64,000 nt of DNA from an uncultured bacterium (GTDB taxonomy: Bacteria; Omnitrophota; Gorgyraeia; Zapsychrales; Aceulaceae), in assembly GCA_937930175.1 (NCBI GenBank), contig CALGLP010000022.1, forward strand, positions 2,585 through 66,584, in the 5' to 3' direction. The notes under the pieces are model-generated. The model was not told the DNA's origin and did not search any database. It was given only the letters and a program-made list of their open reading frames with translations. Positions 22,215 to 53,106 of the stretch are shown piece by piece. The translations under genes and the position numbers were made by a program. The first letter of the stretch is position 1. The number at the start of each line of letters is the position of its first letter.

Positions 22215-22229
22215 GTTAAAGGAGTTTAA

Positions 22230-23168: not shown

Positions 23169-23174
23169 CGCCTT

Positions 23175-24842: not shown

Positions 24843-24844
24843 GC

Positions 24845-34652: not shown

Positions 34653-35228
34653 ATGAAATATCTGGTCGTCTATGCTCATCCAAATCCAAAAAGTTTTTGT
34701 CACGCGATCAAAGAAGAGATCGTTGTTAGGCTTAAGGAGCAGGGAGCGATTGTGGACGTGCGAGATTTGTATCAGATGGGGTTTAATCCTGTCTTAAGCG
34801 CAAATGATTTTATGCAACTTGCTCAAAAAAAGATACCGGCGGATATTCAAAAAGAACAAGATCTTGTTGCTGGGGCGGATACGATTATTTTCATTTATCC
34901 TGTTTGGTGGTTTAGCATGCCCGCGATATTAAAAGGGTATGTTGACCGTGTCTTTATGCGAGGATTTGCCTATGACATGAAAGGGCACATGCTCCAGGGG
35001 CTTTTAAAGGGCAAGAAGGCTATGCTGTTCTCAACGACCGGTGGCCCGCGCTTTGCTTATTATCTTCTTGGCTATTTGGTTGCCATGAAAATCGCCATTG
35101 ATGCGGGGGTCTTTAATTTTTGCGGCTTGAAAGTCGCGTTGCATAAATATTTTTACGCTGTGCCGACGATTAGTGATGGGGCAAGACGGCAGATGTTAGC
35201 TAGTATTAAGAATATTAAGTTTTCATGA
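34653..35228 (+). CDS. NAD(P)H-dependent oxidoreductase, Flavodoxin_2 / NQO-like family
   Basis: MKYLVVYAHPNPKSFCHAIKEEI...IIFIYPVWWFSMPAILKGYVDRVF. Confidence 0.75.
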   Translation: MKYLVVYAHPNPKSFCHAIKEEIVVRLKEQGAIVDVRDLYQMGFNPVLSANDFMQLAQKKIPADIQKEQDLVAGADTIIFIYPVWWFSMPAILKGYVDRVFMRGFAYDMKGHMLQGLLKGKKAMLFSTTGGPRFAYYLLGYLVAMKIAIDAGVFNFCGLKVALHKYFYAVPTISDGARRQMLASIKNIKFS

Positions 35229-35238
35229 AAAGGCATTT

Positions 35239-35832
35239 TTGAGAGGGTCCAGGAGACTTTATCCCATGGGAAAAACAATGATCAAGGTGGTTTTCGTATT
35301 TCTTTGCGCTTTGATGGTGAGCTCGGCTTGGGCACAGGAGCAGATTCCAGAAAAGCCAAAGGTTTTGGTGGTCTATTATTCGCGTGAAGGCCATACGAAG
35401 CAGGTGGCCCAAGAGTTGGCAAAGAAATTTAACGCGGATCTTGAACAATTGATCGATAAGAAAAAAAGGATTGGGCCGATCGCGTTTAGTGCCGCTGGAA
35501 AAGACGCTGTTGCCGGTAATCTGACAAAGCTTGAGCCGTTAACGCATGATCCGCAGCAATACGAGATCATTTTGATTGGTACGCCCAGCTGGTTTGGCAA
35601 TGTCACGCCCGCGGTCAGAACCTTTATTACTCAACATGATCTTTCCAAAAAGCGTATCGGGGTTTTTGGTACAACGCATTTGACCGGGGTTGAAAATGCG
35701 CTTAGCCAGGCCGCAACGCTCCTAGCCCCGGACAGAGCAGGGGAAATCCCAAGTCTCCCTCTTCGGCATCGCGACTTGGTGCCAGAGGTCTTGCCCTCAA
35801 AGATCGACGCCTTTTATCAACAATTGAAATAA
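35239..35832 (+). CDS. Flavodoxin-like protein with N-terminal signal peptide (putatively exported)
   Basis: Signal peptide MIKVVFVFLCALMVSSAWAQE, then flavodoxin-like KVLVVYYSREGHTKQVAQELA...IILIGTPSWFGNV. Real start probably ATG 35266 or 35278. Confidence 0.6.
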   Translation: MRGSRRLYPMGKTMIKVVFVFLCALMVSSAWAQEQIPEKPKVLVVYYSREGHTKQVAQELAKKFNADLEQLIDKKKRIGPIAFSAAGKDAVAGNLTKLEPLTHDPQQYEIILIGTPSWFGNVTPAVRTFITQHDLSKKRIGVFGTTHLTGVENALSQAATLLAPDRAGEIPSLPLRHRDLVPEVLPSKIDAFYQQLK

Positions 35833-35851
35833 TGTTTAGGTGAAATAAAGC

Positions 35852-36646
35852 ATGGCGGACGTAAGAACACAAAAAGAAGAGGACGACACCCAGGCGGTCC
35901 GTCAGGTTTTTGACCAGATCGCGTTTCGCTATGATTTCTTAAATGATCTTTTTTCAGGCTTCATTCATCATCACTGGATGAGGGTCCTTGTTCGAGAAGA
36001 GCCTTGCAGCGTCGAGACCAAGGTCCTCGATGTCTGCACGGGAACTGCTGATGTCGCTATCGCGATAGCGCGGCACAATTCGAAAGCCCGTATTGTTGGC
36101 CTTGATATCAGTGAAAAGATGTTAAGTTTGGCCAAGGCAAAGATCGCCCGGCTTAAGCTTGAGGATCGGATTGAGCTTTGCTGGGGTGACGGATTGGCGA
36201 TGCCGCTTGCGGATCAAAGCGTGGATGTGGTTTTTAATAGTTTTGGCTTAAGGAATCAAGGTGATTATAAAAAAGCTTTAACAGAAATGGCTCGCGTTCT
36301 TAAATTTCAGGGCCGGATCAACATCCTGGAGTTTACGCGGCCTGCCAATATTGTTATTCGAAGCGTCTATCTGTTTTATTTAACTAGGATCATGCCCGTG
36401 GTGAGCCGGTTTTTCTTAAAAGAGCGAGCATCGTTTGATTATTTATCGAGGACCATTAAGCATTTTCCTGCACCGGATGTCGTGGCACAGTTGATGCGTG
36501 ATTGTGGTTTTGCGCAGGTTTGTGTTAAACCTTTGACCGGCGGAATCGCTTGCCTTTACCGGGCAACGCGAGTTCCGGCGGATGGTGGGCAGGGCCCTCG
36601 CGGGGCTCAAGGGAAAAGCTGTTATCATGAGGATCGGAGCCGATGA
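35852..36646 (+). CDS. Class I SAM-dependent methyltransferase, UbiE/MenG (COQ5) family
   Basis: UbiE-type N-terminus VFDQIAFRYDFLNDLFSGFIHHHWMRVLV. SAM motif VLDVCTGTADVA. Stop overlaps the next gene start (ATGA). Confidence 0.8.
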   Translation: MADVRTQKEEDDTQAVRQVFDQIAFRYDFLNDLFSGFIHHHWMRVLVREEPCSVETKVLDVCTGTADVAIAIARHNSKARIVGLDISEKMLSLAKAKIARLKLEDRIELCWGDGLAMPLADQSVDVVFNSFGLRNQGDYKKALTEMARVLKFQGRINILEFTRPANIVIRSVYLFYLTRIMPVVSRFFLKERASFDYLSRTIKHFPAPDVVAQLMRDCGFAQVCVKPLTGGIACLYRATRVPADGGQGPRGAQGKSCYHEDRSR

Positions 36647-39600
36647 AGATCACCTTTATTTATCCGCGTTTTGAAAAGTTTCTAAGTACAAATAAAGATT
36701 TAGACCAGGGGTTGGTGGATTATTTTCTTGGTGATTTTACGACGCCGCCATCTTTGGGTATCCCTATTTTGGCGTCATGGACACCGGCTGATGTTGACGT
36801 CGAGCTGGTGGATGATAACAGCGGGGATCCTGTTGATTTTAACGCTGCTACGGATCTGGTGGCGATCAATTGTTTTACCCCTCAGGCGACGCGGGCTTTT
36901 GAGATCGCGGATGGGTATCGTGCTTGTGGTAAAAAAGTTGTTATGGGTGGTTTTTTTCCTTCGTTTATGGCGGAGGAATGTCTTAAGCACGCGGATGCGG
37001 TTTGTGTCGGTGAGGCGGAGCCTGTTTGGGAAGCGATTGTCGCGGATGCGCGCGCGGGACAGCTTAAGAAAAAATATATTGGTGGCTGCCGCTTTGACTT
37101 AGCCAAGATGCGTATCCCTAGGCGTGCAATCTTTTATAATAAAAAGAATTATGACTGGGATGAAGATCTCGTGCAGATTACCCGGGGATGTTCTTATAAT
37201 TGCGCGATGTGCGCGATCCCCGCCCATATGGGAAGCCATATTCGTTTTCGGCCTATTGACCATATCGTTGAGGAGATGAGAACGCTTAAGTATGACAATG
37301 TGTATCTTGCGGATGATGTGCTCTTTTTTCCGCATAAACGCATTCATGATTATGTGAAGGCATTATTGCAGGAGCTGATCCCTCTTAAGAAGAAGTATTT
37401 TGTCTCCTCGACCATGGCGTTGCGCTCGGAGCCTGCGTTTCTGGACCTTGCGGCTAAGGCGGGCGTCCGTAATTTTTATTGTACGATGAATGTTGACCCG
37501 GTTTCGATCCAGGCGCTGCAAGGGGGAGCAAAAGAACAGCAGATCTTGTGCGACTTGGTCAAGAACATGGAAGATCGTGGTATTCGTTTTTTTGGGTCGT
37601 TTGCCGTTGGCCGCGATTGGGATGATACGAGCATTGCCGATCGGATTATTGATTTGAGCAACAAAGCGAATATTCGCACATCGGAATTCTTTCTTTTTAC
37701 TCCTTATCCGGGCACGGTGCATTGGGATCGACTTGAGCGCCAGGGCAGGATTTTTGATAGGACTTGGAAGCATTATAATGGGGCGCATATTGTCGCGCAC
37801 CATCCAACGATGAGCGACGAAGAGCTTTATGGACAATTTCTTAAGGTGTGGAGAGAATTCTTTAAAAAGAATAAGGATCAGCACGCTGTGCATTTGGCGC
37901 CAATTGTTTATGAGGGTGAAAACGTTGTGGTGGGCAAGCAATTGGCGAAGAAAGGTGTGCGTGGCCAGGCTGCGATTACAGGGGTAGGATTTCTCAGCCC
38001 GATCGGTCACGAAAAAGAAACGATGATCGAGGCTCTCAAGGAAGGCCGTCACGGGATAGCGCCCATCACAAAGCTTGATACCTCTTCCTTTAGTACAAAT
38101 CTCGGCGGAGAAATAAAAGATTTTGATCCTTTGGATCACATGAGCCCGGTGGAATGTCATGATTTTGATGATCCTTATATTCAGCATGCTGTCGTCGCCT
38201 CGCGTAAGGCGATCAAGGATGCGGGCTTGGTGTTGGACAAACATGCCATCAATCGCGATATTGCAGTTGTTTTAGGTACGTGCAACGGTGGGCTGGTTTC
38301 TGGCGAAAAAGAATATCGCTGGATCCACGGGAAGTCCGATGTTCCCTTTGATGAGAAAATGAATCTTTTGGTGAAGTATTACGGATTAGGTAAGGCGATC
38401 GCGCAAGCCCTTAAGATCGGCGGGGAAACGTGGATGGTGACAACGGCCTGCTCTTCCACCACAGCGGCATTGGGGCTGGCTCAGATGTTGATCCGTCGGG
38501 GTTATTATAAAAAGGTGCTGGTAGGCGGCTCGGACAGCTTGAGCCTAGCCAACATTTCTGGGTTTAATGGATTAAAAGCGTTATCGTCTGGCCAGATCGC
38601 GCCTTTTTCAATGCCCTATGGATTGAATATTGGTGAAGCGGCCTGCTTTTGGGTTGTGGAAGAGATGGAGCATGCCCTTTTACGTAACGCTAGATGTTAT
38701 GGTAAGATCATCGGTCATGCTACGACCTCGGATGCCTATCATCCTACGACTCCGGATCCTCGTGGTGAAGGCGTTTTTAAAACGCTCGATCATGCCTTGC
38801 GGAACGCGGGAATTCCTTTAAAGGACATTGCTTATATTAATGCCCATGGAACAGGGACGGAAGCCAATGATCGCGCGGAAAGTAAGGGGATCGCGAAATT
38901 TATTAAAGATGAGCCTGTACCGGTTGTTTCATTAAAATCTTTTTTTGGCCATTGCATGGGAACTGCTGGTATTTTAGAGGCGACATGCAGCTTGTTAAGC
39001 ATGAACGAGGGTTTTATTCCCCCTACGGTCAATTTTTCCAGCGCTCGTCCGGGATGCACGCTTGATTATGTGCCTCAGACATCACGCCCAAAAGAACATC
39101 AGGCTTTTATTTCTGCAAATTATGCTTTTGGCGGGAATAACGCTGCTGTTGTTATTTCCAAATGGGATTTTCCAACACCGGCCATAGAACGGAAAAGCCA
39201 GCGTGTTGTTATTACAGGCCTTGGTGCTATTACATCGCTAGGATTATCGGTCAAGGAGACGCTGGTGGCCTTGCGTCAAAGCAAAAAAGGTCTTGGTTCC
39301 ATTGAACGCTTACAGCTTAAGGGTGTTGGGTCTGCCTTGGCTGGCCTTGTTCCAGATTTTAAAGCAGCACAGATCGATAGGCGCCTTGACTTCTCTTCGT
39401 TAAATCTTATAAGCAAGTTTGCCACGGCTGCAGCCAAGTTGGCTTTAGATCACGCGGGAATTCGTGTGGGAACAAGTAATGCTGATCAGGTTGGTATCGT
39501 CATGGGAGTTTGCAATGGTCCATCGGAGTCAGGCCACATGGACAGTGTTTTTACGTCTGAAAATTACCAGCCGCATATCAGCAGTTTTTCAAATATCACG

Positions 39601-40422
39601 GCTAATTCCACAGCTGGATGGGTGTCCAATCTTTTGTATTTAAAGGGTGTGAATATCTCTTTGGCGCCGGGGCAGCACGCAGGGCTTCAGGCCTTAGCCT
39701 ATGCCTATGATTTTTTAGCAGAAGGGCAGGCTCAGTTTTTGGTCGTGGGAGCAGCGGATGAGGTTTATCCAAGGCATTATTGGAAATATGACGTTATCCA
39801 TTATTTGTATCAAGGGCCAGAGGAGCGGGATTATCGACTGCGACTGGATCATGAAAAGCAAAAAGTAGTTGGTGAAGGCGCGGGGATGATCGTTATGGAA
39901 ACACTTGATCAGGCTAAAGAGCGAGGCGCTCATATCTTAGGCGAGGTTTTAGGCTATGGAATGTCGATGGATGCCGGGCCGTTTATCGGGCAAAATCTTG
40001 ACGTGGAGGGCCTTTTGCATGCCTGTAAGCTTGCCATGGAAAGGGCGCAGATTGTTCGTGACCAGGTTGGCCTTGTTGTGTGGGCTCCTCAGGGCAATGT
40101 CCAGGATCAAAAGGTTATGGATGCGTGCAAGAATATTTTTGCTGCGCGCTACGAAGAAATTCCCCTTGTTACGACAACTTTCAACACAGGATACCTGGAG
40201 AGCGCGTCGATCATGGTGACCCTGGGGTGCGTGCTTGCAGCTTTTGAGCAAGGTTTTGATCTTTGGCCTCAGGTCACAGGGGTTTCAGAGATTGATCGCA
40301 AGGTTCTTGTTAAGTCGCCTGAGCATATTCTTGTGATCGGCAGTAGTGACGTGGGATACAACTTTGCCGTTGTTATTAAGCGTGAACTGTCTACGTTGAA
40401 GGTTCTTTCTGTCAGTGCTTAG
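36643..40422 (+). CDS. Tri-domain protein: B12-binding-like domain + radical SAM core, fused to beta-ketoacyl synthase (KS) and a second KS-like (KS-beta/CLF-like) domain
   Basis: aa 1-150 B12-binding-like (IPILASWTPADVDVELVDDN...VVMGGFFPS...VCVGEAEPVW). Radical SAM CxxxCxxC at ITRGCSYNCAMCAIP. KS domain from about aa 435 (AITGVGFLSPIG) with active-site TACSSTTAALG, NAHGTGTEANDRAE and KSFFGHCMGTAG. Second KS-like domain from about aa 850 (VVITGLGAITSLG...VMGVCNGPSESG). Continuous 1259-aa ORF, no internal stops. Confidence 0.8.
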   Translation: MKITFIYPRFEKFLSTNKDLDQGLVDYFLGDFTTPPSLGIPILASWTPADVDVELVDDNSGDPVDFNAATDLVAINCFTPQATRAFEIADGYRACGKKVVMGGFFPSFMAEECLKHADAVCVGEAEPVWEAIVADARAGQLKKKYIGGCRFDLAKMRIPRRAIFYNKKNYDWDEDLVQITRGCSYNCAMCAIPAHMGSHIRFRPIDHIVEEMRTLKYDNVYLADDVLFFPHKRIHDYVKALLQELIPLKKKYFVSSTMALRSEPAFLDLAAKAGVRNFYCTMNVDPVSIQALQGGAKEQQILCDLVKNMEDRGIRFFGSFAVGRDWDDTSIADRIIDLSNKANIRTSEFFLFTPYPGTVHWDRLERQGRIFDRTWKHYNGAHIVAHHPTMSDEELYGQFLKVWREFFKKNKDQHAVHLAPIVYEGENVVVGKQLAKKGVRGQAAITGVGFLSPIGHEKETMIEALKEGRHGIAPITKLDTSSFSTNLGGEIKDFDPLDHMSPVECHDFDDPYIQHAVVASRKAIKDAGLVLDKHAINRDIAVVLGTCNGGLVSGEKEYRWIHGKSDVPFDEKMNLLVKYYGLGKAIAQALKIGGETWMVTTACSSTTAALGLAQMLIRRGYYKKVLVGGSDSLSLANISGFNGLKALSSGQIAPFSMPYGLNIGEAACFWVVEEMEHALLRNARCYGKIIGHATTSDAYHPTTPDPRGEGVFKTLDHALRNAGIPLKDIAYINAHGTGTEANDRAESKGIAKFIKDEPVPVVSLKSFFGHCMGTAGILEATCSLLSMNEGFIPPTVNFSSARPGCTLDYVPQTSRPKEHQAFISANYAFGGNNAAVVISKWDFPTPAIERKSQRVVITGLGAITSLGLSVKETLVALRQSKKGLGSIERLQLKGVGSALAGLVPDFKAAQIDRRLDFSSLNLISKFATAAAKLALDHAGIRVGTSNADQVGIVMGVCNGPSESGHMDSVFTSENYQPHISSFSNITANSTAGWVSNLLYLKGVNISLAPGQHAGLQALAYAYDFLAEGQAQFLVVGAADEVYPRHYWKYDVIHYLYQGPEERDYRLRLDHEKQKVVGEGAGMIVMETLDQAKERGAHILGEVLGYGMSMDAGPFIGQNLDVEGLLHACKLAMERAQIVRDQVGLVVWAPQGNVQDQKVMDACKNIFAARYEEIPLVTTTFNTGYLESASIMVTLGCVLAAFEQGFDLWPQVTGVSEIDRKVLVKSPEHILVIGSSDVGYNFAVVIKRELSTLKVLSVSA

Positions 40423-40552
40423 AGGAGCGGTGGATCGACTTAAGACGTGATTTGACATTTGACATGCTTGGGAATATCGGGTATCCTGTTTTTTAAGTTT
40501 TGTGATCAATGAGTTATTCACGTTAAAAGCTTTAAAGGAGGGACAATCGAGA

Positions 40553-40849
40553 ATGGATCAGTCTATGCAGGCAACGATTGATGAGCGCGTTGCTGTTATT
40601 CAAGCCATTAAGGAGGAGCTTATTCGGCGTTTAAATCTGCCTTATAAGCCTGAAGATTTACACGAAGATGTTTCGTTGTTTGGGGCAGGGCTAGGCCTGG
40701 ATTCCCTCGATGCCCTCGAGGTTGTTTTGTGTGTTGAAAATTGTTTTGGCATCAGGATCCCGGACAATAATATTGCGATCTTGCGTTCGATCAATACGTT
40801 AGCTGATTATGTTTTAGAGCACAAAGCTAAGCAAGGAGGCGCCGCATGA
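40553..40849 (+). CDS. Acyl carrier protein
   Basis: Phosphopantetheine attachment motif GLDSLDALEVV. AAAGGAGGG RBS 8 nt upstream of ATG 40553 (track start 40502 is inside the RBS region). Stop overlaps next start (ATGA). Confidence 0.75.
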   Translation: MDQSMQATIDERVAVIQAIKEELIRRLNLPYKPEDLHEDVSLFGAGLGLDSLDALEVVLCVENCFGIRIPDNNIAILRSINTLADYVLEHKAKQGGAA

Positions 40850-41955
40850 GAATATCAGCGTTGCGTGACCTCTTGTCCCAGCAGGGGGCTTCGTTTAAAG
40901 AGCGTTTTGGTGTAGAGGTTCCGTCGGTTATCAGTGACCTTAAAACAGAATATCATGCGATTCGTGACCATGTCGGCATTACAGATTTTTCATCCATGCA
41001 GAAGTTTCGGATCACTGCGGAACGGGGAGTTGATTTCTTGGAAAATCTTTTTCCGGGAAATGTAGCGAAGATCCGTTTTTGTCGAGTTTTGCATACTTTT
41101 TTGTCCGATGAAAATGGTAACTTGATCGCAGACTGCTATATTGCTAACAATGATGAAGATTTTATTGTGCTTTGTGACAGCGTTGTTGATGATGCGACGC
41201 TTAAGGCCCTTATGAATAAATATGGCGCTCAGGAGTTTGGGCTTGAGGATATCACCGCGACACATGTTGTTTTTAGCGTCGACGGATATAAAGCCTGGGC
41301 GGTTGTTAAAGAGCTTTGCGGTGCTGATGTCTTAGGCTTGCCGTATCTCTCTGTCGAGACCTATCGCTTTGAAGAAGCCCCGTTTTCTCTTTTCCGAGCT
41401 GGCAAAACATCAGAATTTGGATATTTGATCTTGGCTACTAAGGACATGGGCCCTAAGTTGTTAGCAAAGTTGATTGCGCTTGCGCAAAAAAACGAGGGTG
41501 GCCTTTGTGGGACAACAATTCATGATACCTTGCGTCTTGAGGGGCGCTTCTTTAATATTTTTGCGGAAGGCCTGTCTGTCAAAGATCCGTTGGCCTTGGG
41601 TTTGCAGTGGATGATCGATTTTGATAAGGAGGTCTTTATTGGCCGCGATCCTATTGTTACTAGGCGAGAAAAAGGATTGACGCATAAAATCATCGGTGTC
41701 AAGGCCGAGAGTGCCCTTGAGGATCTTAAAGCCGGCGCTTTCATTTTTCATGAAGGAAAACAAGTCGCTCAAGTGCAGGCTGCCTGCTTTTCGTATGGAC
41801 TCAATGCATGGATTGGCTTGGCGCTTTTTCCAGTTGCTATCGCCTATCCGTATCTGTCTTTTAATCTTGAAAAGCCTGATGGGCTTACGATCGCCACGAT
41901 TGCGATGCCGCCGATCATGCCCAAAAGCTTAACTGTGAAACTCGATGAGCTCTAA
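40846..41955 (+). CDS. Glycine-cleavage T-protein (aminomethyltransferase GcvT/YgfZ/DmdA) family folate-binding protein
   Basis: GcvT-fold signatures HVGITDFSSMQKFRITAERGVDFLENLF and TIHDTLRLEGRFFNIFAEG. Confidence 0.6.
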   Translation: MRISALRDLLSQQGASFKERFGVEVPSVISDLKTEYHAIRDHVGITDFSSMQKFRITAERGVDFLENLFPGNVAKIRFCRVLHTFLSDENGNLIADCYIANNDEDFIVLCDSVVDDATLKALMNKYGAQEFGLEDITATHVVFSVDGYKAWAVVKELCGADVLGLPYLSVETYRFEEAPFSLFRAGKTSEFGYLILATKDMGPKLLAKLIALAQKNEGGLCGTTIHDTLRLEGRFFNIFAEGLSVKDPLALGLQWMIDFDKEVFIGRDPIVTRREKGLTHKIIGVKAESALEDLKAGAFIFHEGKQVAQVQAACFSYGLNAWIGLALFPVAIAYPYLSFNLEKPDGLTIATIAMPPIMPKSLTVKLDEL

Positions 41956-41969
41956 AGTGTGGAGGCATT

Positions 41970-42404
41970 ATGGATAATGCAAAGGGAAGGCTTATTAAGC
42001 GCAAGCTGTCGATCATCCCACGCTTGTGCGATATTGATATGGTTGGTGTGGTTTATAATGTTAATCATTTCAAGTGGTTTGATGAGGGGCGCTTTGCTAT
42101 TATTTCTGAAATGATCAGCTTAGATGAGATCGTTGAAACTGGAATGACGTTTATGATCGCGGAAAATCATTGTAAGTATGAGAACTATGCGACTTATGGC
42201 GAGCCGTTGATTTTATACACCACGCATCGTGTCCAATCTGCTTACCAGGGTCGTTTTGATTTTACGCATTCGATTATCCATGAAAAGAAAAAGACCGAGA
42301 TCGCGAGTGGATCCTCGAGCATGGTGGTCGTTAATTACAAAACACGGCAATTACTTAAAGAACTACCGGATTTTATGTGGCAACGTTATCTTAAAATGCA
42401 ATAG
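41970..42404 (+). CDS. Hotdog-fold acyl-CoA/acyl-ACP thioesterase (4HBT/YbgC-like)
   Basis: 144 aa; IPRLCDIDMVGVVYNVNHFKWFDEGRFAII 4HBT-type pattern. Confidence 0.65.
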   Translation: MDNAKGRLIKRKLSIIPRLCDIDMVGVVYNVNHFKWFDEGRFAIISEMISLDEIVETGMTFMIAENHCKYENYATYGEPLILYTTHRVQSAYQGRFDFTHSIIHEKKKTEIASGSSSMVVVNYKTRQLLKELPDFMWQRYLKMQ

Positions 42405-43151
42405 GTGCCAAATATGCTTCTTGAAGGTCGTATCGCAGTGGTGACTGGGGGTTCTCGGGGGATTGGCCGGGCGATCGTCACCGAATTTGTGCGGAATAAA
42501 GCCAAGGTTTATTTTACCTACCACAAGGATGATGCCGCGGCCAATGAAGTGCGAGATCTCTGCGGTGCTATTCCTGTTAAATGTTCCCAGACGAATTTGG
42601 AAGAGGTCGAAAAGACGATCGCATTTATTTTGGCAGAGAGCGGCAGGATCGATATTTTGGTGAATAATGCGGGCATTACCTCGGATCAGTTTCTGATGAT
42701 GATGCCTTTTGATCAATGGGACAAAGTGATCAATGTTAATCTCAATGGCGCGTATCGCTGGGTCAAGGCGGTGAGCCGGACCATGATCTCTGCGGGAAAA
42801 GGTGTCATCATCAATGTGGCTTCGATCGCGGGTTTGGTGGGTACCCCGGGGCAGAGTAATTATGCAGCCTCCAAAGGGGGCTTGATCGCTTTTACGCGGT
42901 CGCTAGCAGCAGAGCTTGGAACCAAGGGAATTCGTGTGAATGCAATCGTTCCTGGTTTTATTGAAACGGATATGACCGCGGTGATGCCACGGCAGATCAA
43001 AAAGCAAAACATGGAAAGAATTCTTTTAAAGCGATTTGGGAAGCCTGAAGAAATTGCCCCGATCGCTTTATTTTTAGCCTCTGAAGGATCTTCTTATATT
43101 GCAGGTCAAGCAATTGTCGCGGATGGAGGATTGTCGGCCACCGCGGTCTAA
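42405..43151 (+). CDS. fabG: 3-oxoacyl-ACP reductase (SDR family, FabG-like ketoreductase)
   Basis: GRIAVVTGGSRGIGRAIV cofactor motif. Catalytic NVASIAG...YAASKGG (S-Y-K). GTG 42405 or ATG 42414 start. Confidence 0.8.
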   Translation: MPNMLLEGRIAVVTGGSRGIGRAIVTEFVRNKAKVYFTYHKDDAAANEVRDLCGAIPVKCSQTNLEEVEKTIAFILAESGRIDILVNNAGITSDQFLMMMPFDQWDKVINVNLNGAYRWVKAVSRTMISAGKGVIINVASIAGLVGTPGQSNYAASKGGLIAFTRSLAAELGTKGIRVNAIVPGFIETDMTAVMPRQIKKQNMERILLKRFGKPEEIAPIALFLASEGSSYIAGQAIVADGGLSATAV

Positions 43152-43187
43152 TCAAAAATGATGTACATAAGCGATCGTTTTTAAATA

Positions 43188-44135
43188 ATGGCAAAAACTG
43201 TATTCTTATTCCCAGGTCAGGGATCGCAAGAAGTTGGTATGGCGCGCGATTTATTTCATGGTGATGAGTATTTTTTGTCTCTGATTGCTCAGGCGAGCCG
43301 GATCACAGGGGAGGATCTTGCCAGGCTTTGTTTAAAGGGTCCTGAAAAAAGGCTTGCCAATGCGCGTTTTTTGCAGCCCTTGATTGTTGCCGTGTCGCTT
43401 GGCTATCTGAGGCGCGTTCAAGAAAAAGGGATCAAGCCAGATTATTTACTAGGACATTCTTTAGGTGAGATCACTGCCTTGGCTGCGGCAGGCGTTATCA
43501 GCGATGATCTCGCGGTTGTGATGGCTGCTCAGCGTGGGGCGCTTATGGATGAAGCCGCCCAACTTTGCGACGGAGCCATGATGGCGGTATCCGCGCAGGT
43601 CAACGATATTGAAGCCCTTATTGAGGCTCTAGGATTAAGCAATCAAGTGTTCATCAGTAATATTAATTCACCAGAGCAAATAGTCCTTTCGGCAGACAAG
43701 ACATCGTTAAGCATTATGTCCTCCAGGATCCACGCTCAAGGGGGTAAATATAAAATGCTCAATATCGCAGGGCCTTGGCACAGCCCCTATATGGCGAGCG
43801 CTTATGAAAAATTTAAAGTGTGGGCAAAGACCTTGATCCTCCAAGAGCCCTGCACGCCGATTATTTTTAACGCCATGGCCAAACCTGAATCAAATCCGGA
43901 AAAAATAAAAGAATATATAACCGTGCAGATGAAAAGTCCTGTGCATTTTAAGCAGTGCATGGAATATCTTCATCGCGAACCGGTGGAGACTTTTTTAGAA
44001 ATAGGTCCCGGAAGGGTCTTGTCAGGCTTGGTGCGCGCCAATGGTTTTATGCAAGGGACCAAGGTCTTTTGCGTGAATGATCTGCGCGGCGTGGATAACG
44101 CCGCGCGTGAGCTTTCGGTGTCGCGTGACCTTTAG
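43188..44135 (+). CDS. fabD: Malonyl-CoA:ACP transacylase
   Basis: FLFPGQGSQEVGM and active-site GHSLGEITALAAAG. Confidence 0.88.
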   Translation: MAKTVFLFPGQGSQEVGMARDLFHGDEYFLSLIAQASRITGEDLARLCLKGPEKRLANARFLQPLIVAVSLGYLRRVQEKGIKPDYLLGHSLGEITALAAAGVISDDLAVVMAAQRGALMDEAAQLCDGAMMAVSAQVNDIEALIEALGLSNQVFISNINSPEQIVLSADKTSLSIMSSRIHAQGGKYKMLNIAGPWHSPYMASAYEKFKVWAKTLILQEPCTPIIFNAMAKPESNPEKIKEYITVQMKSPVHFKQCMEYLHREPVETFLEIGPGRVLSGLVRANGFMQGTKVFCVNDLRGVDNAARELSVSRDL

Positions 44136-44608
44136 ATGGCGCCTTCCACGCTAGCAAGCATGAGCGTTCCCTTAGCGATGGTTTTCCGACCGGCGATCGC
44201 TTCCACAAGATAGGAATAAAGAACCCCAAATTCTTCTTTGCGTTCTGCGATGAGTTCAAGGGTTTCTCCAGGATATGCGGGAGAAACAAACTTGATATTA
44301 GACGATGCAAGATAAAAAAGGCGCGGTGAGGTTGGTGGCGTCGCGCTCAAGGTCTTTTGGCTAAATCCCATAAGTAACCCGCTTGTTTGCGCTAGGGCGT
44401 CCAGCACGAGCACGCCAGGCATGATCGCTTTTTGTGGAAAATGTCCTTTAAGCCAGGGTTCATCATTGCGTATGGTGCGTTCAGCTACGATCATTTTGTT
44501 GGGGATGAATTTTGTCACGCGATCAACAAAAAGAAAAGGTGGTCTGTGTGGGATGATCGCAAGGATATCGTCTAACCCAAAAATTGTTTTCTTTTCCATG
44601 GCCGGCAT
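44132..44608 (-). CDS. fabZ: 3-hydroxyacyl-ACP dehydratase FabZ (hotdog)
   Basis: IPHRPPFLFVDRV...GHFPQKAIMPGVLVLDALAQTSG. Convergent with fabD, 4-nt overlap. Confidence 0.85.
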   Translation of the reverse strand: MPAMEKKTIFGLDDILAIIPHRPPFLFVDRVTKFIPNKMIVAERTIRNDEPWLKGHFPQKAIMPGVLVLDALAQTSGLLMGFSQKTLSATPPTSPRLFYLASSNIKFVSPAYPGETLELIAERKEEFGVLYSYLVEAIAGRKTIAKGTLMLASVEGAI

Positions 44609-45219: not shown

Positions 45220-45894
45220 ATGGCTTTAATCAAAGAAAAACGCTTTATCATTGTGTTCGCAAAAGAGCCTCAGCGCGGAAAGATTAAAACCCGCCTGAAT
45301 AATGACCTCTCTCAAAAGAGCATTGTGGGTCTTTACAAGGCATTTCTTAAAGATACCGTTGCGGCAATTAACACATATAAAAACGTTCATAAAATAATGG
45401 CTTATTGTTCTGAAGGTCATCCTGTTTATTTAAAAAGGATTGCCCCAGGCTATATTTTATATAAGCAAGAAGGTGTTTCTTTAGGACAAAGACTTTATGC
45501 CGCGTTTGTATTCGCAAAAAATCAAGGAGCCACCAAAATTGTTGTCGTTGGCTCAGACGCGCCGGATCTTCCTTGCGCGTATATTAAAACAGCTTTTCGT
45601 AAGCTTGCGCGGCATGATGTGGTTTTCGGGCCATCCACCGATGGGGGGTATTATTTGGTGGCTTTAAAAAAACCTGTACGGAATATCTTTCAAGGAATAA
45701 AATGGAGCACATCCAGCGTGCTTGCGGAAAGTTTACGCAAGGCCAAAGGGGCTCGTCAAAAAGTGTCTTTGCTCAAACCCTGGCGTGATATAGACCAATA
45801 TGAAGATCTTGAAGCGCTCAGGACATCAGTAAAGAAAAACAAAGCTTGTGCCAGGCATACCCGGGAGTTTCTCTATGGAACGTGTTTCAAGTAA
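45220..45894 (+). CDS. DUF2064 family nucleotidyl/glycosyl-transferase-like protein (TIGR04282-like)
   Basis: RFIIVFAKEPQRGKIKTRL...IVVVGSDAPDLP...VVFGPSTDGGYYLVALKKP. Recognised from memory as the DUF2064 pattern. Confidence 0.55.
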   Translation: MALIKEKRFIIVFAKEPQRGKIKTRLNNDLSQKSIVGLYKAFLKDTVAAINTYKNVHKIMAYCSEGHPVYLKRIAPGYILYKQEGVSLGQRLYAAFVFAKNQGATKIVVVGSDAPDLPCAYIKTAFRKLARHDVVFGPSTDGGYYLVALKKPVRNIFQGIKWSTSSVLAESLRKAKGARQKVSLLKPWRDIDQYEDLEALRTSVKKNKACARHTREFLYGTCFK

Positions 45895-46207
45895 TTTGGT
45901 TATCATTACTCAATATAAATGGGCGGGGCAGATGGGGCCTTTCAAGATCCGTTCGACGTGTGAAGAGTGCGACATGACCACGCATCGGCTTAAAAAGATC
46001 ATAGGGGAATATTTTGCCGCTGAGCCTGTTGCTTTTGAAATTAAGCCATGGCTTGATCATGCGTTTTATTGTTTATCTAAAGGAACCTTTCATCCGCCGA
46101 TCATTTTGATCAACGGAAGAAAATTTTATCAATTTAGCCACGCGCATCCGGCTTTTGATCAAGAAAAGTTTATTGCACGGGTCCACCAGTTGCTGAAAGG
46201 AGAATAA
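45875..46207 (+). CDS. Hypothetical small protein with CEEC motif (possibly thioredoxin/glutaredoxin-like fold)
   Basis: ORF in a different frame, overlapping the 3' end of the previous gene. STCEECDMT and PPIILINGRKF loosely Grx-like. Start ambiguous (45848, 45875 or ~45940). Confidence 0.35.
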   Translation: MERVSSNLVIITQYKWAGQMGPFKIRSTCEECDMTTHRLKKIIGEYFAAEPVAFEIKPWLDHAFYCLSKGTFHPPIILINGRKFYQFSHAHPAFDQEKFIARVHQLLKGE

Positions 46208-46214
46208 ACGTAAT

Positions 46215-47216
46215 ATGGTCATCAACGATATCATTAACAAATCTTTAAACGGGGAAGCATTGGAAGCTTTGGAAATCAAAAAGCTTTTTGAGGTCGATCT
46301 TTTTACCGAAGAAAGCGCGTTGGTGCAGGTGGCGTCTTATCAGAAAAGCCAGAAGGCTTGCCATGGCAAGGCGGAGGTGCATGCGCAGGTGGGGATCAAT
46401 ATTGCGCCGTGTCCCAGGGATTGTTTGTTTTGTGCCTTTGCTGCAGTGAATAAAGTTTTTAAAGAATCATCGCAGTTAACCCCGCAGCAGGCTGTTGAGA
46501 AGTTACGTCAATTTGAGCAAGATGGTGCGAATGCGGTTTTTGTGATGGCCACGGGCAATTATCCGGTGGAAAAGTTTTTTGAGGTTTCGCAGGAGATTCG
46601 TCGCGGTTTAAAACCGCAAACGATCTTGATCGCGAATGTGGGTGATTTTTCGCTCGCTGAAGCCAGGCGGTTAAAAGCGTGCGGGTATGCGGGAATTTAT
46701 CATGCGGTGCGTTTAGGCGAGGGACGAGATACAAAGATCAAGAAAGAAAAACGTTTGGAAACTTTTCGCTATGCGAAAGAAGCAGGACTCCTTTTGGGAA
46801 CATGTCTTGAGCCTGTGGGAACCGAGCATTCGGTGGATGAGCTGGTTGAAAAAACGATCATCACCCGCGATGCCAAACCGGTTTATAGCGGCGCGGCCCG
46901 GCGCATTCCGATCCCTAACACCAAGCTTGGTTCCTATCCGATCGTTAGCGAAGCAAAGATGGCGCATATTTTAGCGGTTGTTCGATTGGCCCTTGGCTAC
47001 GATATTCCCGGTAACTGTACCCATGAGCCCAACGTGATCGGCTGTGCTGCCGGCGCGAACTTGCTTTGGGCGGAAGTCGGCTCTAATCCGCGCGACACGC
47101 ATCAGGAGACCCAGCAGGCACGCGGAATGAACGTGCTTCAGTGCCGGAATGTTCTTAAGGAAGCGCATTGGGACGTGCTCGACGGGCCTTCTGTTTTTTA
47201 TTCGGGAAAAAATTAA
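46215..47216 (+). CDS. Radical SAM protein of the BioB/HydE/PylB-like family
   Basis: Cluster-binding motif NIAPCPRDCLFCAFA (CxxxCxxC). BioB-like LKACGYAGIYHAV...GTCLEPVG layout. 333 aa. Confidence 0.65.
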   Translation: MVINDIINKSLNGEALEALEIKKLFEVDLFTEESALVQVASYQKSQKACHGKAEVHAQVGINIAPCPRDCLFCAFAAVNKVFKESSQLTPQQAVEKLRQFEQDGANAVFVMATGNYPVEKFFEVSQEIRRGLKPQTILIANVGDFSLAEARRLKACGYAGIYHAVRLGEGRDTKIKKEKRLETFRYAKEAGLLLGTCLEPVGTEHSVDELVEKTIITRDAKPVYSGAARRIPIPNTKLGSYPIVSEAKMAHILAVVRLALGYDIPGNCTHEPNVIGCAAGANLLWAEVGSNPRDTHQETQQARGMNVLQCRNVLKEAHWDVLDGPSVFYSGKN

Positions 47217-48007
47217 TCGTTGCTGTAAGAAAGAATGTTGGTAGAGTGGCGGCCGGTCTCTAGGCCTTGATATTGGACCCATTGAAAAGGATAAGTTCTT
47301 TGGTACCAGACAAAGGTTGCGGGAACATATTGATCAAAAACATTATCCAGAATGCCCATATCGGCAATGAGGCGAATTTTGACACAGTCATAACTGCGGC
47401 CGCTGGGTAGTGTAATAGTTTCTTGGCCTTGTTGTTTGACAAGAACTTTGTAGAGAGCGGGTTCGAATGTTATTAAATAAAATGATTGGTTGTTCTTTTC
47501 GTTTAGATAAGGAATAAAGCTTTTCACAAAATTTGTTAAGCAGATTTCATCGATAGTCGGGCCTTTGATCGGAAAAGTGTAGTTTTTAACCCGTGCTCTT
47601 TTTGGGTTACGGCGGTCATCGATCTTAATGGTGATTTTCTTTTTTTCGTAATCAAAGTCTTTTTGGGCCTGGTAGAGCGTGTTACCTTCAAGATCTTTGA
47701 TGACGCACAATGATTTTTTTTGGATCAGGCGTCTGTCTTTGATGGTCCCGGTTGCCTCCGCGAGCCAGTCAACGAGCTCAAAGTGATCAAAAGCGCCGCG
47801 TCCTTTTTTCTGGGCTGTAAAGGAGTCACTGGTAACCGTAAAAGAGTGCGAGGAGGCAGAGCGCGGTGTTTGTGTCGGGAAATTAAGGATCGCGGCCGAT
47901 CCTGCTTGCTGAAAATCAGTCCAAGACGCCTCGGTCGCGAAAGCCGGAACACAAACGCTGATAAGCCAAAGACAAGATAAGAGTATTATTTTCATTGGAA
48001 GTTTCAT
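47213..48007 (-). CDS. Hypothetical secreted protein
   Basis: Signal peptide MKLPMKIILLSCLWLISVCVPAFA. Non-repetitive 264-aa ORF convergent with the radical SAM gene. Confidence 0.5.
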   Translation of the reverse strand: MKLPMKIILLSCLWLISVCVPAFATEASWTDFQQAGSAAILNFPTQTPRSASSHSFTVTSDSFTAQKKGRGAFDHFELVDWLAEATGTIKDRRLIQKKSLCVIKDLEGNTLYQAQKDFDYEKKKITIKIDDRRNPKRARVKNYTFPIKGPTIDEICLTNFVKSFIPYLNEKNNQSFYLITFEPALYKVLVKQQGQETITLPSGRSYDCVKIRLIADMGILDNVFDQYVPATFVWYQRTYPFQWVQYQGLETGRHSTNILSYSND

Positions 48008-48053
48008 CAGTTCATATCATAAGGAAAAGTTTAAAGAAAGCCAACAAGAATTT

Positions 48054-48737
48054 ATGCCTTATTATTCATTGATTGTGATCACTCTTAAAGCGGACAGCGC
48101 GCTTTTGCAGAAAACACGGATTCTGCTTGAGCGTTATCCGGATTTGGAAGTTATCATTGTTCAAGCGGACGGCTCTAAAGAATGTCCTGCGTCCTGGTCT
48201 TCGCGTCTTTGTTTAGCGCAGGCCCCCAAGGGAAGAGGTCTGCAGTGCAACGCGGGTGCGCGTCTTGCCAGCGGCGAGAATTTGATCTTCCTGCATGCAG
48301 ATACGGAGTTACCACAAAAGGCGTTTGAGGTTATTGATAAAGTGTTTCAAGATCCGAAAGTTCAGTTGGCGTGTTTTCGTTTGCGCTTCGATATGGCGCA
48401 TGGACTTCTAAAGTTTTATAGTTTTTTTACACGTTTTGATTCTTTTTGGACGAGTTTTGGAGATCAGGGGATTGTCGTTCGGCGAACATTTTTTGATCGG
48501 GTTAAAGGTTTTCCGGATTGGCCATTGCTTGAGGATGTGGAGTTCTTTAGGCGCGCTAGAAAGTTTACAAAAGTTGTTAAGCTGCCGCTCTCGGTTACGA
48601 CATCGGCTATTCGCTATAAAGAGAATGGAATCTTACGTCAACAACTTAAGAATGCTTGGTTGCTGATCCGATACCGCTTGGGTGCTTCCCCTTGGGACTT
48701 GGTCAAAGAATATGAAAAGAAAAGAGGCGGCCTGTGA
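48054..48737 (+). CDS. Small glycosyltransferase family 2 protein (TIGR04283-like)
   Basis: SLIVITLKADSALL...VIIVQADGS...IFLHADTELP GT2 signature; about 227 aa. Confidence 0.6.
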   Translation: MPYYSLIVITLKADSALLQKTRILLERYPDLEVIIVQADGSKECPASWSSRLCLAQAPKGRGLQCNAGARLASGENLIFLHADTELPQKAFEVIDKVFQDPKVQLACFRLRFDMAHGLLKFYSFFTRFDSFWTSFGDQGIVVRRTFFDRVKGFPDWPLLEDVEFFRRARKFTKVVKLPLSVTTSAIRYKENGILRQQLKNAWLLIRYRLGASPWDLVKEYEKKRGGL

Positions 48738-49501
48738 AATTTAAGATAGCATTTTTTTTGATGATATTTTCTTTGTTTTCTGTTAACGCGCAAGCCCTGA
48801 ACCATGATCTTTTTACGGGTGTGCTTCAAAGTTATGTCACCGAGGGTATGGTTGATTATAAGGGGATGTGCGGGGATATGCGCTTAGCGCAGTACATTGA
48901 TCAAATAAGCCAGGCAGACCCGGAAAAGATTACCGATAACAAGGCGCGCTTAGCTTTTTGGCTGAATGCGTACAATGCCTGGACGCTCAAGATTATTTGT
49001 GATCATTATCCTTTAAAAAGTATTAATGAGCTGCATTCCGGCGGGCTGGCCGTCGGGATGATCCTTAAAACGACCGTTTGGGATAAGAAAATAGTTACAA
49101 TTAATAACCAGAAAACCTCTTTGAGCCGTATCGAACACAAAATCATTCGCCCTGTTTTTAAAGATCCCCGCATTCATTTTGCCGTTGTTTGCGCAGCGAA
49201 GGGCTGTCCACCTCTAAGAAATGAGGCATATGAAGCCAAGGTATTGGATCAGCAGCTTGATAGTCAAGGCAGCATATTTCTTGCTCAAGAGAAGAAGAAC
49301 TCATTTAATTTTGAAACTAAAACAGCCAATATTTCGCCTATTTTCGGTTGGTTCAAGGAAGATTTTGGAGGGAAGCCCGAAGCGGTTTTGCGTTTTATTG
49401 CCGGCTATTTACCTGAAGAAGAAGGGAAGATCCTTTCTCAAGATGCAGCCAGATGGAAAATCAAATATACGTTTTACGATTGGAGCTTAAATGAGCAGTG
49501 A
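48734..49501 (+). CDS. DUF547 domain protein, secreted
   Basis: Signal peptide. DUF547 core LAFWLNAYNAWTLKIICDHYPLKSINEL. Confidence 0.6.
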   Translation: MKFKIAFFLMIFSLFSVNAQALNHDLFTGVLQSYVTEGMVDYKGMCGDMRLAQYIDQISQADPEKITDNKARLAFWLNAYNAWTLKIICDHYPLKSINELHSGGLAVGMILKTTVWDKKIVTINNQKTSLSRIEHKIIRPVFKDPRIHFAVVCAAKGCPPLRNEAYEAKVLDQQLDSQGSIFLAQEKKNSFNFETKTANISPIFGWFKEDFGGKPEAVLRFIAGYLPEEEGKILSQDAARWKIKYTFYDWSLNEQ

Positions 49502-52323: not shown

Positions 52324-52343
52324 TAGAATAGAAAGGAGGCAAG

Positions 52344-53105: not shown

Positions 53106-53106
53106 C

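Follow-up and report, generated by a model that had tools for sequence, protein, structure and literature searches.

A conserved radical SAM–ketosynthase–chain-length-factor fusion protein and its ACP-coupled GcvT-family partner in an uncultured Omnitrophota bacterium

A gene cluster at 34653-44608 of a 64,000-nt contig stretch from an Omnitrophota metagenome-assembled genome (MAG) is built around a three-domain fusion gene; the stretch is hereafter called the window, and all positions are its coordinates. The gene (36643-40422, plus strand) is a single unbroken open reading frame (ORF) of 1259 aa, in which a radical S-adenosylmethionine (SAM) region is continued by a complete ketosynthase (KS) and by a second KS-like domain of the chain-length-factor (CLF) kind. 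The fusion is a real, conserved gene and no assembly artefact, since the identical protein was present in an independent assembly and all of the 120 best homologues were fused with their catalytic residues kept. Together with an acyl carrier protein (ACP) and a GcvT-like protein, it makes up the core of the system. The reading that we lean towards, at somewhat better than even confidence, is that 34653-44608 encodes a dedicated iterative type II acyl or polyketide synthase, in which the ACP-bound chain would be radically modified in cis with the involvement of folate one-carbon units.

The fusion protein is composed of the following parts:

36643-37932, plus strand: N-terminal part (aa 1-430), a B12-binding-like Rossmann region (aa ~1-150) and the radical SAM core
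37972-39177, plus strand: KS domain (aa ~444-845) of FabF type with intact triad, according to Pfam, NCBIfam and PDB matches
39190-40422, plus strand: second KS-like domain (aa ~850-1259), CLF-like with the triad replaced, according to BLASTP, alignment and model

Profile-HMM mapping with Pfam placed all of the expected domains on the protein, i.e. B12-binding (PF02310) at aa 37-132 with a marginal 33.5 bits (cut-off 32.1), Radical_SAM (PF04055) at aa 178-315 with 34.5 bits (cut-off 29.5), and the N- and C-terminal ketoacyl-synt families (PF00109, 152 bits, and PF02801, 122 bits) within aa 444-798, with a further ketoacyl-synt stretch downstream of the complete KS. The radical SAM motif CX3CX2C reads CSYNCAMC (aa 183-190) and is the sole Fe-S motif in the protein, and the KS active site consists of Cys603 (TACSS), His735 (HGTGT) and His770 (GHCMG). 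The original prediction, which was made from the letters of the window, had described the uninterrupted frame, the cysteine triad, the TACSS cysteine and the two histidine motifs, and the ORF list and translation agree with it throughout. Linkers between the domains (aa ~420-440 and ~841-855) are short, and their conservation is below that of the domains.

Among 5.8 billion proteins searched, 258 relatives were found, and residues were checked in the best 120 of these, which were 60–79% identical to the fusion protein, save one identical database copy. Full length (1246–1317 aa, 99% coverage) was retained in 116 of the 120, the other four being shorter (992–1168 aa), two of them on contigs too short for the gene. 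The fused domains were found in all 120, and the radical SAM cysteine triad and the KS Cys/His/His residues were invariant in every one. In addition, the identical 1259-aa protein and the same gene order were present on an independently assembled Logan contig (SRR3330211, locus L001). Unfused versions are known in Myxococcota, which would suit an origin of the fusion by sequencing or assembly error, such as a frameshift joining separate genes; that origin was rejected as practically excluded, given the independent assembly and homologues that come fused from many projects and at least four phyla. The architecture is thus not unique to one assembly.

The distribution of the system was surveyed with a profile of the radical SAM domain in one genome per species, covering 185,579 species. 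The domain was found in 102 species genomes (~0.05%), of which 80 were listed, and all 80 are MAGs. Among the 80 listed, the fused form was present in Omnitrophota, in Fibrobacterota (including Chitinivibrionales and Chitinispirillaceae), in Verrucomicrobiota and the Planctomycetota–Verrucomicrobiota–Chlamydiota (PVC) group (including Victivallales and Kiritimatiellae), and in Rokubacteria. The closest carrier was Candidatus Aceula meridiana with 86% identity in the radical SAM domain, which makes an Omnitrophota origin of the window almost certain. Carriers in Myxococcota and ‘Deltaproteobacteria’ have an unfused radical SAM enzyme as a separate protein of ~440–500 aa, and in the four such loci that were detailed, a KS-CLF gene was located directly downstream in three (L084, L086 and L087) and none was nearby in L075. 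Since the radical SAM and KS-CLF genes are adjacent and unfused in these carriers, the tri-domain protein is regarded as the fused state of a functional pair that existed before it.

Some of the taxonomic labels attached to carriers are doubtful. Locus L013 (CAYZIY010000005.1) is labelled ‘uncultured Planctomycetales’, yet its radical SAM domain has 81% identity and the locus has full synteny with the Omnitrophota loci, so that the label or binning is questionable; the same applies to labels of Bifidobacteriaceae (L071, L074) and Bacteroidales (L069).

The conserved neighbourhood was counted in 40 of the 80 loci, namely those with the full fusion and at least 6.5 kb of downstream sequence. Counts of distal genes are underestimates, as the flanks end ~7.5 kb after the fusion gene. 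The families and their frequencies were:

GcvT-like protein: 36 of 40 loci
ACP, downstream of the fusion gene: 36 of 40 loci
ACP stop codon at most 60 nt from the GcvT-like start: 31 of 40 loci
Beta-ketoacyl-ACP reductase (KR): 33 of 40 loci
Malonyl-CoA:ACP transacylase (MAT): 26 of 40 loci
Second KS-CLF protein of ~770 aa: 22 of 40 loci
Dehydratase (DH): 20 of 40 loci, an underestimate
Thioesterase: 19 of 40 loci
361-aa FMN-reductase-like flavoprotein: 17 of 40 loci
PlsC-type acyltransferase: 17 of 40 loci, or 16 if the count starts at -4 kb
UbiE-like methyltransferase (MT): 1 of 40 loci (L013)

The fusion protein, the ACP and the GcvT-like protein therefore form the core of the system, to which KR and MAT are added in nearly all cases, and the same core was seen in the Pfam-annotated contexts of four other assemblies. 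All-against-all clustering of the ORFs around 59 loci gave no further recurrent family, the remainder being shadow ORFs inside the fusion gene. In most carriers outside Omnitrophota, the second KS-CLF gene directly follows the fusion gene, and its product has an active KS (Cys/His/His) as first half and a degenerate second half; examples are L002 13753-16035, L003 13759-16071 and L004 13765-16068, and the gene is absent from the Omnitrophota loci. Five Omnitrophota loci have a PF01553 acyltransferase gene directly upstream of the fusion gene, where the window has flavodoxin-like genes and the MT gene. The original prediction had overlooked the second KS-CLF protein and the acyltransferases which accompany the fusion in other lineages; acyltransferase, second KS-CLF and 361-aa flavoprotein are all absent from the whole 64-kb window.

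On the basis of both Pfam halves and the invariant Cys-His-His triad, the first KS domain of the fusion protein is of FabF type. It scored above the cut-off of the NCBIfam subfamily NF005589 (442.6 bits against 387) and below that of the housekeeping FabF equivalog TIGR03150 (461.8 bits against 493.75). Its best PDB sequence matches were 9s5h_B (238.7 bits) and Bacillus subtilis FabF (235 bits), and it was similar to Iga11 (6kxd, 205 bits) and to the cispentacin subunit AmcF (256 bits, below cut-off). The second KS-like domain is 20% identical to the first (internal BLASTP, E 1e-11), and Gln1011, Pro1149 and Tyr1184 replace Cys, His and His, Gln1011 being aligned with Cys163 of Escherichia coli FabF. 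A conserved Gln at the Cys position is the decarboxylation or initiation residue of the CLFs of aromatic polyketide synthases (PKSs). A canonical CLF of this ‘KS-Q’ type was rejected for the second domain, because Gln is peculiar to the window sequence and the family has mostly Pro or His: across the 120 homologues, the ‘Cys’ column holds Pro in 82, His in 31, Leu in 4 and Gln in 1.

The AlphaFold2 (AF2) model of aa 436-1259 (824 aa) had a predicted local distance difference test score (pLDDT) of 71 and a predicted TM-score (pTM) of 0.82. Its best PDB match was the KS-CLF didomain of PfaC, 6riw (query TM-score, TMq, 0.71; 930 alignment columns; E 2e-36), which superposes over both halves. It was the sole match with two domains near the top of the listing, and nearly all other listed matches were single KS chains covering half of the model. 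The second domain is accordingly modelled as a KS fold that lacks the triad and is paired with an active KS, which suggests that it is a CLF.

The N-terminal half of the fusion protein is a member of the radical SAM superfamily, as judged from the CX3CX2C motif, the PF04055 match above cut-off, and the agreement of its model with radical SAM structures. The AF2 model of aa 1-432 (pLDDT 83.5, pTM 0.83) had AprD4 (6fd2) as top Foldseek match (TMq 0.75, E 9e-17), followed by TsrM, MgmA (9ccb), CysS, TokK, MiaB/RimO and OxsB. The structural matches of class B type had a probability of 1.0, TMq values of 0.55–0.75 and sequence identities of 12–17%; by sequence, MgmA alone was detectable in the PDB (E 2e-6). 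A Rossmann-type B12-binding domain lies N-terminal to the radical SAM core according to the fold match and the marginal PF02310 score, the PF02310 match being graded as weak in several homologues. Of the earlier designation ‘class B, B12-binding’, the first part is confirmed by the model as an architecture; use of cobalamin, in contrast, is unproven, given the marginal Pfam score and AprD4 as the nearest fold. We take AprD4 to be a radical diol dehydratase that has a B12-type N-terminal domain and is cobalamin-independent. No curated NCBIfam model of a radical SAM family was reached, the best being TIGR04013 (61 bits against a cut-off of 251).

Our best guess for the step catalysed by this domain, though at low confidence, would be a cobalamin-dependent C-methylation leading to methyl-branched chains; serious alternatives are cyclisation, desaturation independent of O2, and radical dehydration. 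Among B12-dependent radical SAM enzymes, methylation, cyclisation and desaturation of lipid chains are all known (bioRxiv 10.1101/2025.10.20.683597). Within an otherwise equal framework, the radical SAM domain could thus be non-methylating or cobalamin-independent and carry out an AprD4-like dehydration or deoxygenation, an O2-independent desaturation or a ring closure, and this we regard as possible, although doubtful. Such a role is suggested by AprD4 ranking ahead of the methylases in the structural search, by the marginal B12-binding score, by the single Fe-S motif, by a cluster without enoyl reductase, by the existence of lipid desaturases and ring synthases among the B12-dependent radical SAM enzymes (bioRxiv 10.1101/2025.10.20.683597), and by radical SAM relatives that are fused to desaturase-family flavoproteins. 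It is opposed by the next-ranked TsrM, MgmA, CysS, TokK and OxsB, which all use cobalamin and of which four are methylases, and by the AprD4 family model NF033070, which was absent among the 25 listed of the 36 NCBIfam matches of the fusion protein. The Foldseek rank of AprD4 may also reflect its similar size and lack of extra domains, and the conserved folate-type partner suits one-carbon chemistry better than dehydration.

Relatives of the radical SAM domain were sought in 1.84 billion cluster representatives. Standalone relatives of ~430 aa were 34–56% identical to it, and a second type of fusion was found, in which the radical SAM domain (38% identity) is joined to a phytoene-desaturase-family flavoprotein (P0129, ~930 aa). 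In locus L006, this type of fusion comes after an ACP gene, a gene with a weak lipid-A-acyltransferase match and a further desaturase-like gene, and the relative P0127 adjoins genes for a desaturase-like flavoprotein and serine hydroxymethyltransferase (SHMT). The contexts of P0124 and P0125, in turn, are non-lipid or uninformative, and at 40–45% identity the radical SAM clade is not uniformly lipid-associated. Judging from gene context, the relatives beside or fused to desaturase-like flavoproteins point to hydrocarbon-chain substrates.

Further radical SAM genes were observed alongside these. The radical SAM–desaturase fusion also occurs in Chitinivibrionales and Chitinispirillaceae (proteins P0286–P0299), and its loci include L005 594-3389 and L006 47-5623. 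In L018, L035, L047, L061 and L068, an extra standalone paralogue of the radical SAM domain is encoded a few kb upstream of the fusion gene. The window itself contains a separate, more canonical B12-binding radical SAM protein of 520 aa (26782-28344, plus strand; B12-binding 77.9 bits, Radical_SAM 93.3 bits), whose best family matches, HpnJ (212 bits) and BchE (196 bits), were both under cut-off. It is just 22% identical to P0129, and is located downstream of genes for a UDP-glucose dehydrogenase, a family 2 glycosyltransferase, a 555-aa protein and an asparagine synthase (20898-26773).

The GcvT-like protein belongs to its fold family with 122.8 bits to GCV_T (PF01571; cut-off 25.6) over profile positions 2-255 of 255. 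It remained far from the T-protein equivalog TIGR00528 (110.7 bits against a cut-off of 235.85) and was below the cut-offs for DmdA, SoxA and trimethylamine N-oxide (TMAO) demethylase. Among PDB sequences it matched GcvT (1yx2, 84.6 bits), DmdA (3tfh, 65 bits) and dimethylglycine dehydrogenase. A YgfZ-type identity in Fe-S repair was not supported, as no YgfZ model was matched and the best models were GcvT, TMAO demethylase, SoxA and DmdA, though a function of that type is still conceivable. Alignment of 41 copies (that of the window and 40 from related loci) showed a generally well conserved protein with many invariant motifs, and the ‘RxGYTGExG’ and ‘DTLRLE’ regions are recognisable. In the ‘DD’ pair of the T-protein, the first Asp is replaced by Ala in the window protein (by Asn in DmdA), and the second Asp does not vary among the 41 copies; the catalytic Asp of the pair is presumably as we assign it from E. 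coli numbering.

The original prediction had proposed an ‘MT/GcvT pair’. The GcvT half of this stands, the gene being conserved in 36 of the 40 loci, yet it is coupled to the ACP rather than to the MT. The UbiE-like MT is a lineage-specific addition, and was rejected both as part of the core and as GcvT's partner because a homologue occurred in one locus of the 40; in this locus, L013, the MT recurs with a flavodoxin, but at the opposite end of the cluster.

An SHMT gene was encountered within 3–6 kb of the fusion gene in a Fibrobacter MAG (L003 2913-4427), and another within this distance of a standalone radical SAM relative with a desaturase-like neighbour (L091 4714-5994). SHMT is a housekeeping gene and a source of methylene-tetrahydrofolate, and its proximity may be a coincidence.

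The genes which surround the fusion gene in the window are the following:

34653-35228, plus strand: Flavodoxin_2/FMN_red-type NAD(P)H oxidoreductase, 191 aa (Pfam Flavodoxin_2, 166 bits)
35239-35832, plus strand: flavodoxin-like protein, 188–197 aa (Pfam Flavodoxin_5/_4)
35852-36646, plus strand: UbiE/MenG-family SAM methyltransferase, 264 aa (Pfam Ubie_methyltran, 193 bits)
40553-40849, plus strand: ACP, 98 aa, with GLDSL serine motif (Pfam PP-binding, 39.5 bits)
40846-41955, plus strand: GcvT-family folate-type protein, 369 aa (Pfam GCV_T, 122.8 bits)
41970-42404, plus strand: hotdog-fold thioesterase, 144 aa (Pfam 4HBT_2, 57.5 bits)
42405-43151, plus strand: FabG-like KR, 245–248 aa (Pfam adh_short_C2, 216 bits)
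43188-44135, plus strand: FabD-like MAT, 315 aa (Pfam Acyl_transf_1, 128.6 bits)
44132-44608, minus strand: FabZ/ApeP-like hotdog DH, 155–158 aa (Pfam FabA, 72 bits)

Pfam thus recovered all of the neighbours named in the original prediction (MT, ACP, GcvT family, hotdog thioesterase, FabG, FabD and a convergent FabZ), as well as the type II toolkit of KS/CLF, ACP, KR, DH, MAT and thioesterase that it had recognised. Translational coupling by ATGA overlaps, also part of that description, is present at 36643-36646 between the MT and fusion genes and at 40846-40849 between the ACP and GcvT-like genes. The two flavodoxin-like genes upstream had been missed. The first is preceded by a divergent intergenic region of 132 nt and is separated by 10 nt from the second, which in turn lies 19 nt before the MT gene; the independent assembly (L001) shows the same order for the first gene, and homologues of the second were found in or beside the cluster in the Omnitrophota loci L010, L011 and L013. 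The operon probably starts at 34653 with the two flavodoxin-like genes, and the product of 34653-35228 is a candidate electron supply for the radical SAM cluster.

The UbiE-like MT is a member of the TIGR01934 subfamily (216.7 bits, above 158.35) and falls just under the cut-off of the UbiE equivalog NF001244 (206 bits against 216), and a scan of ~45 of the 58 window ORFs revealed no other gene of a quinone pathway. The start of the ACP is most likely ATG 40553, behind a AAAGGAGGG ribosome-binding site, and not GTG 40502, an assignment which is supported by the gene call in L001. For KR, ATG 42414 was called in the independent assembly and is the probable start, and DH, which is convergent with the MAT gene with a 4-nt overlap, was called there as 44132-44599. 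No cobalamin or SAM riboswitch was found in the whole window.

Transcription signals did not delimit the operon. Promoter-like sites numbered 29 against 17 expected in shuffled sequence, a slight excess, and terminator-like sites 17 against 15, which is near expectation. The single noteworthy site is a promoter-like TTGACA-17-TATCCT at 40459-40487, in the 130-nt gap between the fusion and ACP genes (40423-40552), and the ACP-GcvT-TE-KR-MAT genes, TE denoting the thioesterase, may also be transcribed on their own.

Two gene runs downstream of the cluster were observed. The first (45220-50267) follows a TspO gene and contains a pair of ‘arsenosugar biosynthesis glycosyltransferases’ (TIGR04282 and TIGR04283, both above cut-offs), interleaved with a small radical SAM gene (46215-47216), DUF3108 and DUF547, and then a fatty-acid-hydroxylase/OlsE-like protein; it may be another lipid- or sugar-modifying module, and no link to the fusion cluster was found in other loci. 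The second (50324-54459) encodes a UvdE UV endonuclease, a DUF2071–DCC1 thiol oxidoreductase fusion, a glutathione peroxidase and a photolyase, a run of repair and redox genes that one would not expect in a strict anaerobe of dark habitats, if the organism is one.

The joint presence of FabF-, FabG-, FabD- and FabZ-like genes and an ACP is what a housekeeping fatty-acid synthase operon with an incidental fusion would look like. This explanation is very unlikely. KR (TIGR01830, 280 bits against a cut-off of 297.75), MAT (TIGR00128, 233 bits against 260.9) and DH (TIGR01750, 105 bits against 155), like the KS, all scored below their equivalog cut-offs, and matches that fall just below these cut-offs fit specialised paralogues rather than housekeeping enzymes. 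Moreover, the cluster has no FabH, FabI or acetyl-CoA carboxylase gene, the system occurs in just 102 of the 185,579 species genomes, and the fab-like genes are tightly associated with the radical SAM domain and the GcvT-like protein.

In the synthase reading that we favour, we infer the following order of events. The FabD-like MAT would charge the dedicated ACP with malonyl. Initiation and extension of the chain would fall to the KS and the catalytically dead domain paired with it, and the FabG-like KR and FabZ-like DH would process each beta-keto group. The radical SAM domain would receive electrons from the flavodoxin-type proteins encoded with it, generate a 5'-deoxyadenosyl radical and modify the ACP-tethered chain during its shuttling to the KS, either by H abstraction or by methylation. 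The GcvT-like protein, whose synthesis would be coupled 1:1 to that of the ACP, would dock on the ACP as the T-protein does on lipoyl H-protein, and could shuttle one-carbon units between tetrahydrofolate and either the tethered intermediate or the radical SAM cofactor. The thioesterase would then release the acid, which in relatives may be placed in a membrane lipid by the PlsC-type acyltransferases. The product would most likely be a modified acyl chain for a membrane lipid.

The idea of action in cis on ACP-bound chains, put forward already in the original prediction, is a reasonable one, with the fusion kept across at least four phyla and its catalytic residues intact, and it fits also the Myxococcota arrangement with the radical SAM gene directly upstream of the KS-CLF gene. 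A natural fusion of this kind fixes the stoichiometry of the partners, and because the radical SAM domain is joined to the KS/CLF pair, it argues strongly for the growing ACP-bound chain as the substrate.

Several points weigh against this reading of the cluster. The family is known from MAGs only, to which all 80 listed carriers belong, and no cultured organism with a lipid profile to match was among them. The B12-binding match is marginal (33.5 bits against 32.1) and weak in several homologues, no riboswitch accompanies it, and AprD4, the top structural neighbour, is not known to use cobalamin. The GcvT-like protein is far under its equivalog cut-off and without the first Asp of the ‘DD’ pair, its use of folate being suggested by family membership, and the Myxococcota versions have no GcvT homologue nearby. 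Finally, the window encodes a thioesterase and no acyltransferase, and a free acid or a secondary metabolite is therefore possible as the product.

It is unlikely that the cluster makes a secondary metabolite other than a lipid, such as a polyene or pigment acid of the aryl-polyene or ishigamide kind, with the radical SAM domain serving as a tailoring enzyme. A thioesterase without an acyltransferase would agree with such a product, and so would the KS/CLF, KR and DH genes without enoyl reductase, the gene set of highly reducing type II PKSs. DH matches the ApeP-like and ApeI-like Pfam families, KR resembles the flexirubin reductase FlxB (213 bits, below cut-off) and the KS resembles AmcF (256 bits), and genome-mining tools class such clusters as biosynthetic gene clusters (BGCs) (PMC9902471). 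However, all matches to named PKS families were below the cut-offs, no adenylation, aryl-starter, glycosyltransferase or exporter genes recurred in the neighbourhoods, and PlsC was present in 17 loci, with a further acyltransferase directly upstream in five Omnitrophota loci.

The original prediction had also drawn an analogy to the proposed route to ladderanes. A true pathway for these cyclobutane lipids, orthologous to the anammox clusters, would at first sight agree with the parts list. Anammox Cluster I (KustE3603-3608) encodes amxACP, amxFabZ, an amxFabF2/amxFabFmut heterodimer with KS/CLF-like behaviour, a phytoene-dehydrogenase-like protein and a B12-type radical SAM protein, and resembles the window cluster, as does Kuste2803-2805, in co-encoding ACP, FabZ, a KS with a dead KS homologue and a B12-type radical SAM protein (PMC10139942; PMC2649909; bioRxiv 10.64898/2026.05.19.726425). 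In Kuenenia, the B12-type radical SAM protein Kuste2803 is encoded near the triad-less FabB-like Kuste2805 (PMC2649909), and ‘ladderane’ BGCs called by antiSMASH have been reported in the same phyla (PMC9902471).

The likeness is nevertheless superficial, and the link is one of analogy; homology is not supported. The comparison was based on a family model, gene content and published residues, and not on aligning anammox sequences. Membership of the fusion protein in the ladderane-associated radical SAM family TIGR04072 (rSAM_ladder_B12) was rejected, because aa 89-258 gave 48.2 bits where the cut-off is 360, and the standalone relatives scored 43–57 bits with the same model. No phytoene-desaturase homologue was found in the window by tblastn or in the ~10 kb around the match in the 80 loci. 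The substitutions in the dead KS also differ, being Gln/Pro/His, Pro and Tyr/Phe here, when the anammox residues are Val, Asn and Glu (Kuste3606) or Phe, Asn and Glu (Kuste2805). The few named close standalone relatives of the radical SAM domain are from Spirochaetota and Hodarchaeota MAGs, and no anammox bacteria were among the best matches. Neither KS domain shows a specific preference for the 9s5h chains over ordinary FabF; a particular affinity to 9s5h, a putative anammox FabF heterodimer, was rejected because the KS scored just 3 bits higher with it than with B. subtilis FabF. In addition, ladderanes have been reported from anammox bacteria only (PMC9902471). Unlike in Cluster I, the radical SAM, KS and CLF domains form one protein here, the phytoene-dehydrogenase-like protein is lacking, a GcvT-like protein is an extra partner, and the carriers are of non-anammox phyla. 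A ladderane pathway is on these grounds highly improbable.

‘Ladderane’ BGCs called by antiSMASH, which are expressed and have no assigned function, have been described in Fibrobacterota, Verrucomicrobiota, Omnitrophota, Myxococcota and other groups (PMC9902471). This taxonomic overlap suggests that the radical SAM–KS–CLF family accounts for many of these puzzling metagenome calls, and it is probably a large part of them.

Of the known systems, PfaC (6riw) is the closest to the condensing half, with an active KS and a triad-less KS-like domain in a single chain, packed as a pseudo-dimer, and with anaerobic, ACP-based chain assembly. It differs in that the sequence identity is only 16% and that PfaC works within a type I-like, multi-domain megasynthase that includes DH domains. 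A radical SAM domain and a GcvT partner are both lacking there, and the PfaA subfamily model gave 72.6 bits with the fusion protein against a cut-off of 1010. The highly reducing type II PKSs (Iga11/Iga12, ApeO/ApeC and AmcF/AmcG) share the discrete ACP, KR and DH and the absence of an enoyl reductase, but have separate KS and CLF proteins, no radical SAM and no folate enzyme, and their family models were not reached here. The class B radical SAM enzymes TsrM, MgmA, CysS, TokK and OxsB, together with AprD4, have the same N-terminal Rossmann-like domain and CX3CX2C TIM-barrel core, and none of them is fused to a condensing enzyme.

Radical SAM action on ketoacyl lipids has so far been proposed for ladderanes and jawsamycin only, and in the jawsamycin system Jaw4/Jaw5, an iterative PKS with a radical SAM cyclopropanase, the intermediate is altered on its carrier between rounds of elongation (PMC13459092), which in concept is the nearest precedent for what we propose. 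Unlike Jaw5 and the C10P-type cyclopropanases, the fusion protein has no HemN-type domain in Pfam and NCBIfam scans. Jaw5 is, as we understand it, a HemN-like radical SAM enzyme without a B12-type domain, which works as a separate protein with a type I PKS. The GcvT-like protein, in turn, has the fold and motifs of the T-protein and is likewise paired with a small swinging-arm carrier, which unlike the lipoyl H-protein is a phosphopantetheine ACP.

Full-text literature searches yielded no account of a radical SAM–KS–CLF fusion, nor of a KS/ACP system with a GcvT-type partner, and the earlier statement that no protein of this architecture has been characterised agrees with both literature and NCBIfam. 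The fused layout and the folate-family partner appear to be without precedent, and the chemistry, as read from the genes, is conjecture. With its coupling to the ACP, the GcvT-family partner suggests that a carrier-bound chain is subject to folate one-carbon chemistry, and to our knowledge there is no precedent for such chemistry on a polyketide or fatty acyl chain. More speculatively, and with rather little confidence, the system could represent a new kind of iterative synthase, in which a radical SAM enzyme and a folate one-carbon unit are built into the elongation cycle and a T-protein-like enzyme rides on the ACP.

The modification of fatty-acid-type (ketoacyl) chains by radical SAM enzymes is almost unexplored, and the anammox system has resisted heterologous work (PMC10139942). 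If the proposed function is true, the family would make branched or carbocyclic acyl lipids of a class not yet assigned, in uncultured anaerobes that live in peat, sediments and digesters, and could point to the makers of orphan environmental biomarker lipids. It would also provide the first tractable model of cooperation between a radical SAM enzyme and machinery of the fatty-acid synthase type, which is the unsolved core of the ladderane problem.

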